Part shown: positions 24,763 to 25,258 of the stretch, in pieces
How positions within the stretch are numbered: the first letter of the stretch is position 1
Layout: each line of letters starts with the position of its first letter
Source of the DNA: Escherichia phage vB_Eco_ORH_001
Direction: 5' to 3' (one strand)
Sequence record: PV656001.1
Length of the DNA stretch: 44,456 nt
Program-made: the position numbers and the translations under genes
The notes under the pieces: generated by a model
Databases searched by the model: none
What the model was told of the DNA's origin: nothing
The model's input: only the letters and a program-made list of their open reading frames with translations

Positions 24763-25026
24763 CTATTCCAGAATATTCCTCACGTAATCCTGCAACATGA
24801 ACACTTTCAGCCTCAGTTGCCGTACGCATTCGGCGTTCTGGACGTCGATAGCCAAATCCTCGTCGGCATCGCTACTTGGCGCGGCCAGTTTGCACGGCGG
24901 CTGCATCATTGTCGTATCCGGGGATGGAATTGGCGTTGGTGACGGCGCGGGACTTGAGTTGCACGCGCTCAGTGTCAAAAGTGCACACGCTGCGACCAGG
25001 CGTTTTAATGTACTTAACGACTTCAC
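24763..25026 (-). CDS. outer-membrane spanin (Rz1-like lipoprotein)
   Basis: Signal peptide with lipobox LTLSAC, then Pro-rich NSSPAPSPTPIPSPD; starts inside the 24872..25258 gene in another frame. Confidence 0.6.
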   Translation of the reverse strand: MKSLSTLKRLVAACALLTLSACNSSPAPSPTPIPSPDTTMMQPPCKLAAPSSDADEDLAIDVQNAECVRQLRLKVFMLQDYVRNILE

Positions 25027-25258
25027 GGGTAATCACCTCTGATTTCGTCTTGCCTTCGTTGTCAGCGGCGGCGGCCTTTGATTCATCCTGCTGCTGCCGT
25101 TGTGTTTTCTTCGCGAACTCAGCCAGTGCTTCCTGCTGTTGCTGCGAAACGAGATTCGCCCGGCCTTCGTTCCAGCCGCTGCGGTATTGAAAGTAGCCGT
25201 GTGCGTAAGCCAGGATGATGAAACATGCTCCCGCTACGACAGTTGCTTTAAGATTCAT
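24872..25258 (-). CDS. inner-membrane spanin (Rz-like)
   Basis: N-terminal TM anchor MNLKATVVAGACFIILAYA, then charged helical periplasmic region; overlapped by the Rz1-like gene. Confidence 0.6.
   Translation of the reverse strand: MNLKATVVAGACFIILAYAHGYFQYRSGWNEGRANLVSQQQQEALAEFAKKTQRQQQDESKAAAADNEGKTKSEVITREVVKYIKTPGRSVCTFDTERVQLKSRAVTNANSIPGYDNDAAAVQTGRAK

Follow-up and report, generated by a model that had tools for sequence, protein, structure and literature searches.

Overlapped spanin genes of the Jersey type in the head module of Escherichia phage vB_Eco_ORH_001, and the candidate regulatory region around them

The spanin pair and its coding signals

The window, by which we mean the whole stretch of 44,456 nucleotides analysed here (Escherichia phage vB_Eco_ORH_001, PV656001.1), carries on its minus strand two open reading frames that form a genuine overlapped spanin pair (Table 1). 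An Rz/Rz1-like pair had been called at this place in the initial annotation, and the call is confirmed, both ORFs being found where it had put them and matching PHROGs 2536, 5672 and 1267. The second gene does begin inside the first in another frame, as had been claimed: the o-spanin is read in the +1 frame relative to the i-spanin, shares 155 nt with it and extends 109 nt beyond its stop.

Table 1. Features of the spanin locus and of the holin and endolysin genes, in window positions.
Feature	Position	Strand	Description or basis
Scaffold gene	23979..24734		PHROGs and Pfam
Palindrome copy 2	24735..24748	-	GGAATAATTTATTC; abuts TTGACA between the o-spanin and scaffold genes
o-spanin (Rz1-like) gene	24763..25026	-	87 aa, GTG start, +1 frame; ORF and PHROGs
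Two-frame region (i-spanin C-terminus and o-spanin N-terminus)	24872..25026	-	155 nt
i-spanin (Rz-like) gene	24872..25258	-	128 aa; ORF call, PHROG 2536 and Hrm2 annotation
Lipoprotein signal peptide, lipobox LSAC, Cys22	24961..25026	-	Rule-based scan
Predicted N-terminal transmembrane anchor of the i-spanin	25193..25249	-	About residues 4-22; Kyte-Doolittle and AF2
Long hairpin	25273..25315	-	Ends 15 nt before the i-spanin ATG, 4 nt before the ribosome-binding site
Structured RNA leader element	25375..25479	-	About 105 nt: 5' hairpin P1, composite hairpin P2-P3-P4, then CGGAAGGGCC
Predicted sigma-70 promoter	25483..25511	-	-35 TTGACT, 17-nt spacer, extended -10 TGcTAAGCT
Palindrome copy 1	25518..25531	-	GGAATAAACTATTC; 6 bp upstream of the predicted -35
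Bidirectional intrinsic terminator	25575..25601	.	TAAAAAGCCCC-GTTAA-GGGGCTTTTTA; directly after the decoration gene
Decoration gene	25602..26063		PHROGs and Pfam
Endolysin	32876..33379	-	PHROG 7 and Pfam Phage_lysozyme, E 9e-27
Second holin-like gene	33342..33614	-	Holin PHROGs (2359, 2508 across both holin genes)
Holin	33607..33915	-	Holin PHROGs (2359, 2508 across both holin genes)

The i-spanin begins with MNLKATVVAGACFIILAYAHGY, and an AAGGAG ribosome-binding site stands 4 nt ahead of its ATG. Residues 1-22 make up the sole hydrophobic stretch of the protein, the top-scoring 19-residue Kyte-Doolittle window covering residues 1-19, and the remainder is polar, which agrees with the N-terminal transmembrane anchor that had been proposed for this gene. 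A single-sequence AF2 model gives a helix over residues 3-63 (pLDDT 71-91 per 10-residue block) and leaves the C-terminal half, residues 68-128, without a usable structure (pLDDT below 50). The predicted topology is that of one N-terminal transmembrane segment, most of the protein lying in the periplasm. The periplasmic Cys92 is invariant in the i-spanin alignment. The protein matches PHROG 2536 ('Rz-like spanin', E 1.1e-53), has a single sub-threshold match in Pfam (DUF2514), and is 92% identical to its counterpart in K1H and 62% identical to that in wksl3.

The o-spanin starts at a GTG preceded by the ribosome-binding site GAGGTG. Its signal, MKSLSTLKRLVAACALLTLSAC followed by NSS, is first basic, then hydrophobic, and ends in the lipobox LSAC with Cys22; a rule-based scan detects the lipoprotein signal, in keeping with the lipobox LTLSAC and the proline-rich region reported initially, the latter consisting of nine prolines within residues 26-50. 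Cys22 would be a signal peptidase II cysteine without Asp at +2, and since the residue at this position is Asn, there is no inner-membrane retention signal. With Cys45 and Cys67 of the o-spanin and Cys92 of the i-spanin, both partners carry periplasmic cysteines for intermolecular disulfides. The o-spanin matches two further Rz-like spanin families, PHROG 5672 (E 3.2e-30) and PHROG 1267 (E 4.1e-20). In a rule-based six-frame scan of the whole window it was the sole ORF with a credible lipoprotein signal, so that there is no second spanin candidate in the genome, and none was found next to the endolysin.

By megablast, positions 24000..26200 are 100% identical to Escherichia phage vB_Eco_Hrm2 (PV656002.1, Kagunavirus), with about 480 further Guernseyvirinae records at lower identity; the DNA of the spanin region is about 94% identical to that of K1ind1 and K1ind2. 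Relative to PV656002.1 the window is reverse-complemented and rotated (position 1 of that record is window position 34397), and differs by one extra T in a T8/T9 run near 32779. PV656002.1 annotates both genes as 'Rz-like spanin' at the same coordinates, the o-spanin with just its final 47 codons and without the signal peptide, and misses the scaffold and capsid genes. The curated record of Schulenburg likewise annotates the o-spanin short, and these short forms, together with the GTG start, could be taken to mean that the longer frame is open by accident and is no gene. We regard this as extremely improbable, since the GTG is preceded by GAGGTG, the full 87 aa are annotated at the equivalent place in the curated record of Shelanagig, and identity over the part of the o-spanin past the i-spanin stop amounts to 93% within Kagunavirus and 80% against Jerseyvirus. 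Moreover, all 76 related loci keep this frame open and encode a homologue, at identities down to 35-45%. Among the 72 of these loci in which a heuristic could place the o-spanin start, the +1 frame is kept in 71, and a crude rule recognises the lipobox and signal peptide in 61; at least six of the 11 loci missed by this rule have an LLSGC-type motif when the first 40 residues are viewed.

Position of the pair in the genome and the lysis pathway

The flanking genes were confirmed by PHROGs and Pfam as the decoration and scaffold genes, between which the pair had been placed. The distance to the holins and endolysin, given initially as about 8 kb, measures 7.6 kb from the i-spanin start to the endolysin stop, and the interval holds 12 annotated small ORFs, the terminase, the portal, two head genes and a strong terminator; the spanins thus do not follow the endolysin directly, as they do in a canonical contiguous cassette of the lambda type. 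The holin, the second holin-like gene and the endolysin are annotated as such in PV656002.1, and the endolysin N-terminus (MEDISVSRN...) has no hydrophobic stretch. These genes share the minus strand with all structural genes and are followed by nin-like small ORFs and then by the terminase. Pfam found DUF2737, DUF3850/ASCH and a sub-threshold NinH match, the NinH-like ORF being 30742..30978, in the block of small ORFs and nothing else there, and gave no antiterminator or clear regulator among ten ORFs, nine of which are small ORFs between endolysin and terminase.

Synteny was followed in 76 IMG/VR loci, collected through the i-spanin alignment, and in seven annotated GenBank stretches around the spanins. 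The order portal, gp7-like head morphogenesis gene, Hoc-like decoration gene, i-spanin, o-spanin, scaffold and major capsid was found in all loci with readable flanks, and was seen in Kagunavirus, Jerseyvirus, Cornellvirus and Serratia phage Tsm2. The Dhillonvirus pair comes directly after the gp7-like gene and upstream of the annotated major capsid gene, its i-spanin overlaps the preceding head gene and the intergenic region is absent; in L006, an unannotated Klebsiella phage, the flanking genes were not recognisable. The length of the spanin overlap varies by group: Kagunavirus and Jerseyvirus have 155 nt, Dhillonvirus has 98-128 nt and the Cornellvirus type 4-41 nt. Since the same order recurs in every readable relative, we take the head-module position to be old and fixed, and by this comparison of gene orders ancestral in Guernseyvirinae and also in Dhillonvirus. 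The literature on the Kagunavirus phages fBC-Eco01, Ro145clw and Golestan comments on the spanins lying apart from the other lysis genes; in Golestan, ORF7-8 encode the spanins and ORF66-68 the holins and endolysin. The finding is therefore correct but ordinary, because both the pair and its unusual position had been annotated and published before.

The same position could raise the question of whether the pair serves lysis at all, or rather another membrane or lipoprotein role, such as superinfection exclusion (as with T5 Llp or Cor-type proteins) or an aid to assembly at the membrane. The pair is unlinked from holin and endolysin and lies inside the head module in every relative, and our literature search found no experiment on the Jersey-type spanin family (complementation, deletion or lipid labelling). 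Nevertheless, we consider such a role very improbable: the full spanin signature is present, with a type II protein, a lipoprotein in the +1 frame, a proline-rich linker and periplasmic cysteines; several independent spanin PHROGs are matched; the pair is the sole spanin candidate in a genome with holins and a soluble endolysin, in a phage of a Gram-negative host; and spanins unlinked from the other lysis genes are known in T4.

For the spanin pair we read the gene architecture, sorting signals, cysteines and family membership directly from the window, and the mechanism of action in the phage would be that carried over from lambda Rz/Rz1. By analogy, the N-terminal helix of the i-spanin would anchor in the inner membrane, with the remainder extending into the periplasm, and the o-spanin, once exported and carrying lipid at Cys22, would be sorted to the outer membrane; the C-terminal parts of the two proteins would bind each other and bridge the periplasm. 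Before holin triggering and endolysin action, spanins accumulate harmlessly under the restraint of intact peptidoglycan. Release of the soluble endolysin by the holins would destroy the peptidoglycan and leave the spanin complexes free to move and to disrupt the outer membrane, probably by fusion with the inner membrane, as the final step of lysis. The initial annotation had argued that splitting the lysis genes makes outer-membrane disruption strictly late; this does not follow from established spanin biology, since spanins are inert until the peptidoglycan is gone and the timing of lysis is therefore set by the holin and not by spanin expression.

Transcription signals and the leader RNA

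The holins and endolysin had been assigned to a leftward early unit, and the lysis genes as a whole to two transcription units, and each of these claims stands in part. The sequence GAATAGT-N3-CTATT, a repeat also described for fBC-Eco01, has five copies in the window against 0.01 expected, each copy lying within the spacer that separates the hexamers of a near-consensus sigma-70 promoter (TTGACA-17-TATAGT or TTGCAC-17-TACTAT). Two conserved leftward promoters of this class, at about 37350 and 35580, lie upstream of holin and endolysin, and no minus-strand terminator is predicted between them and these genes, which makes an early leftward unit plausible from promoter content; it is, however, not on the opposite strand from the structural genes. 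Similarly, the division into two units is favoured by a predicted terminator followed by a promoter-like site ahead of the spanins, but all the genes concerned are on one strand.

The terminator has perfect 11-nt arms and a 5-nt loop; its matches in Rfam are just the terminator hairpins of sRNA models, and at the equivalent position in Schulenburg a terminator is annotated on both strands. Downstream of it, the predicted promoter has equivalents in Jerseyvirus (TAGACT-17-TGtTACGCT) and in the L056 group of loci (TGGACT-17-TGaTAACCT), so that the hexamers, the 17-nt spacing and the TG extension persist across three lineages in which the spacer sequence differs. In relatives, 0.2-1.6 kb of opposite-strand genes separate the terminator from the promoter-like site (Schulenburg has a sliding-clamp-like gene, PhiSTP1 an HNH endonuclease together with a regulator, and SCS92 a small ORF), from which we argue that transcription restarts there. 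This arrangement supports a predicted separate unit starting just upstream of the spanins, the pair being its first coding unit after terminator, promoter-like site and a leader of about 220 nt, and the spanins would be transcribed together with the scaffold and major capsid genes or immediately ahead of them.

The spanins could alternatively have no unit of their own, if one long minus-strand transcript ran from the early promoters to the tail genes and the hairpins shaped the processing or stability of this mRNA. Such a transcript would be compatible with the co-directional run of genes from about 37300 to 5438, with the lack of a predicted strong terminator between the endolysin and portal genes, with the Dhillonvirus i-spanin overlapping its preceding head gene directly, and with a generic promoter scan, which does not list the site at 25483..25511 and finds no more sites than chance. 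It accounts less readily for the hairpin behind the decoration gene, which has the textbook form of a bidirectional intrinsic terminator, for inserts placed exactly between this terminator and the promoter-like site, and for promoter elements conserved in three lineages around a variable spacer, and we think it rather unlikely. For Guernseyvirinae, which include widely used therapeutic phages of Salmonella and E. coli, no transcript mapping was found in the literature.

From about 25476 to the i-spanin ATG, some 220 nt are non-coding. This leader is 98-98.5% identical within Kagunavirus, against 88-94% in neighbouring genes, and as a whole it folds with a z-score of -3.9, better than all of 200 shuffles. 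Independent MFE folds gave the 5' hairpin and the long three-part hairpin in Kagunavirus representatives and in one Jerseyvirus representative, and in the other representatives single stems recur at matching positions with different sequences. Kagunavirus forms stem P1 from GCUUGU/ACAAGC, Jerseyvirus from ACGCU/AGCGU and the L056 group from CGUUC/GAACG, and stem P4 is CGGGAC/GUCCUG in the window, CGGUGC/GCACUG in locus L037 and GGGCGU/ACGCCC in Jerseyvirus. A cross-genus MAFFT alignment with RNAalifold did not recover the structure, because the stems were misaligned, and a covariance model (R1) seeded with Kagunavirus sequences alone was used for the alignment instead. R1 found one leader copy per genome, always at the same place, with E 2e-5 to 3e-4 in Jerseyvirus and weak scores in the L056/L057 group, and a second model, R2, reached loci L060, L061 and L068 at E 0.003-0.016. 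In the leader alignment, which is fitted to the model, 95.5% of cells are paired (28-42% with slid partners), and compensatory changes occur in 15/29 pairs, a number reached by 0/500 shuffles. This leader RNA, which covaries across three lineages, may be new. No Rfam family matched the leader, either in a gathering scan of the whole window or in a permissive scan of 25200..25650, which returned generic terminator hairpins, and no tRNA or tmRNA was found. Elsewhere in the window, neither the promoter motif TGNTAMSCT nor CGGAAGGGCC shows enrichment, so that both the promoter type of the leader and the RNA element are single-copy. An ORF of 36 aa annotated in GenBank at 25353..25463 was rejected as a gene, its ATG being lost in L037 and Jerseyvirus while the RNA stems are kept.

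The long hairpin that follows has a top stem (25283..25302) with a terminator-like score, and both its top and lower stems covary between Kagunavirus and Jerseyvirus, with an equivalent hairpin in the L056/L060 group. Its reading as a simple intrinsic terminator (25302..25283) is weakened, since the U-rich tail is taken up in the lower stem and a U-tract is absent from Jerseyvirus, and a role in processing or stability is therefore at least as likely as termination. The leader itself could act in antitermination, in RNA processing or stability, or by binding a protein. By eye, 25429..25413 can be paired with 25311..25295 at 15/17 positions as a candidate antiterminator pairing, and in Jerseyvirus as about 9 bp with a bulge.

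The motif GGAATAnnnTATTC has two exact copies in the window, which bracket the spanin pair, and both places are conserved in most Guernseyvirinae loci; the region between the o-spanin and scaffold genes, where the second copy lies, is nearly invariant across genera. These palindromes are possibly sites for a phage regulator. A longer 16-bp palindrome, AACTATTCGAATAGTT, occurs once and is not conserved outside Kagunavirus, and was discarded as the conserved unit in favour of GGAATAnnnTATTC, and a near-match at 21919..21933 is on the stop/start junction of two genes and is probably coincidental.

We hypothesise, tentatively, that a late unit under separate control has the spanins as its first cistron, together with an extended -10 promoter, the bracketing GGAATAnnnTATTC palindromes, and a cis-regulatory leader RNA with its long hairpin, and, with the same reserve, that under this reading the promoter, the palindrome pair and the leader are elements without earlier description. 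The leader would then set the timing and strength of spanin, scaffold and capsid expression in Guernseyvirinae. Taken whole, the best explanation of the locus, in which we have high confidence, is a two-component spanin with a mechanism of the lambda type, an ancestral place in the head module and a predicted expression unit of its own. The spanin finding by itself adds little beyond completing the holin, endolysin and spanin system, in a head-module position typical of Jersey/K1G-like phages, and its main use is correct annotation, as the public record shortens the o-spanin and lacks annotations for scaffold and capsid. A by-product, the conserved regulatory region that surrounds the pair, is of more use; for example in its leader RNA of about 105 nt, it may be the one new element here and, if leader and palindromes are functional, an entry point to late-gene control in Guernseyvirinae.

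Comparison with known systems

The layout upstream of the spanins recalls the PR'-6S-tR' region of lambda, where a promoter and a leader of about 200 nt with a strong end hairpin (in the late entry compared, a 194-nt 6S RNA between PR' and tR') precede the lysis pair and the head genes. Similarly, the put elements of HK022 consist of two stem-loop units just downstream of a promoter; put RNA is about 70 nt long, has copies downstream of the early promoters and acts in cis on RNA polymerase (PMC9378689). The present element differs from put in size (about 105 nt), in copy number (one per genome, against two) and in sequence, and does not fit the description of the put-type antiterminator RNAs. 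It has no sequence similarity to the lambda PR' entry either, and no Q-like gene was identified; the likeness to both systems is best read as a resemblance of layout, with no support for membership.

As for the proteins, the pair shares with lambda Rz/Rz1 the combination of a type II inner-membrane protein and an outer-membrane lipoprotein encoded in the +1 frame, a proline-rich mature part, periplasmic cysteines and, as we infer for the present pair, the same role. Sequence similarity to Rz/Rz1 is not detectable, and the arrangements differ: Rz1 is embedded wholly in Rz and follows S and R immediately within a single late transcript, whereas here the o-spanin gene overshoots the i-spanin stop and the pair lies several kilobases from holin and endolysin. 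[quoted passage not shown]

The closest system is the 'Jersey' family of overlapped spanins, with 27 members including Jersey, SETP3, K1G, K1H, K1ind1-3 and HK578 (Kongari 2018, PMC6139136). According to the same study, the spanins of phage Jersey overlap by 155 bp, the family's o-spanin has constant cysteines at positions 45 and 67, and the i-spanin of the Jersey subfamily consists of two helices connected through a linker that contains beta strands. The overlap and both o-spanin cysteines were reproduced here, the predicted i-spanin has a transmembrane anchor followed by a periplasmic helix, and the sequences are homologous to those of K1H, wksl3, K1ind1 and K1ind2, which all stand in the family list. 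There is no substantive difference, and judged by these sequence comparisons the spanin pair of vB_Eco_ORH_001 is a plain further member of the published Jersey family, from a newer isolate.

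A structured leader RNA before the i-spanin gene

We found a conserved structured RNA, about 105 nt long and with covarying stems, located after a predicted promoter and before the i-spanin gene, with the leader continuing beyond it (Table). It occurs as a single copy per genome, in the identical location in Kagunavirus, Jerseyvirus and the group of related loci L056/L060, and within Kagunavirus its identity reaches 98%, versus 88-94% for the genes on either side. Rfam scans of the window matched no family to this RNA.

Features in the window and, where named, in related phage loci (L005, L007, L008; own coordinates)
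Feature	Position	Strand	Detail
Structured RNA, ~105 nt	25375..25479	-	leader continues to 25259
Palindrome GGAATAnnnTATTC	25518..25531; 24735..24748		two exact copies, the only ones in the window
Predicted hairpins CCGGG-NGG-CCCGG and GUCC-AGG-GGAC	within 24681..24762	-	o-spanin/scaffold intergenic region
Insertion hot spot, window	between 25575..25601 and 25566
Insertion hot spot, relatives	L005 916-2516; L007 2135-2338; L008 2104-2625
GAATAGT-N3-CTATT	15765-15779; 35560-35574; 37332-37346; 40975-40989; 43288-43302
Small ORFs, endolysin-terminase interval	30742..32361	-	DUF2737 (E 8e-10); DUF3850/ASCH, predicted RNA-binding (E 2e-18)
Scaffold gene	23979..24734	-	PHROG 206 (E 1e-55)
ORF, ~90% identical to capsid proteins	22927..23976	-

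Sites flanking the spanin pair

The two palindromes flank the spanin pair on both sides, each adjoined by a -35-like hexamer, and both sites are kept across most Guernseyvirinae loci; they may be binding sites for a regulator. The intergenic region between the o-spanin and scaffold genes is nearly unchanged across genera, and the hairpins predicted in it would sequester the scaffold ribosome-binding site. On the other side, the interval that separates the decoration-gene terminator from the leader promoter is a hot spot for insertions, its length ranging from ~0.3 to 2.4 kb. In relatives it carries, on the opposite strand, a sliding-clamp-like gene, a small ORF, or an HNH endonuclease together with a 'transcriptional regulator'.

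Annotation, promoters and small ORFs elsewhere in the window

The record of the Kagunavirus vB_Eco_Hrm2 (PV656002.1) is identical to the window apart from one intergenic run downstream of the endolysin gene (~32779), T9 in the window versus T8, which makes the window 1 base longer. Its annotation reads the wrong strand at 22885..24540 (+) as a 'hypothetical protein' of 551 aa, omits both the scaffold gene and the neighbouring ORF, whose product is ~90% identical to the annotated major capsid proteins of Schulenburg and Shelanagig, and cuts the o-spanin to 47 aa, so that the signal peptide is lost.

The motif GAATAGT-N3-CTATT is present in 5 copies, versus 0.01 expected, every one within the spacer of a predicted near-consensus sigma-70 promoter; what these predicted promoters head are the genes for replication, the leftward block of small ORFs and holins, and an exonuclease/immunity unit. 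An identical repeat has already been published for fBC-Eco01, where the copies were termed 'phage promoters'. The set of small ORFs that separates the endolysin from the terminase recalls the nin region of lambda, and a NinH-like protein (a sub-threshold match) is encoded immediately upstream of the small terminase gene.

Mosaic and distant relatives

Four related contigs are mosaic (L041, L042, L044 and L058, positions ~3140-3884). Their leader is of the Kagunavirus type, 93-99% identical to that of the window, and is followed by a divergent, Jerseyvirus- or Cornellvirus-like i-spanin of 63-72% identity, which puts a recombination junction at the leader/i-spanin boundary. Dhillonvirus (loci L002, 4549-4990, and L069-L084) carries, in the same location, a distant member of the window's spanin family; there the spanin locus lacks a leader and directly overlaps the end of the gp7-like head gene, and an opposite-strand gene follows it.
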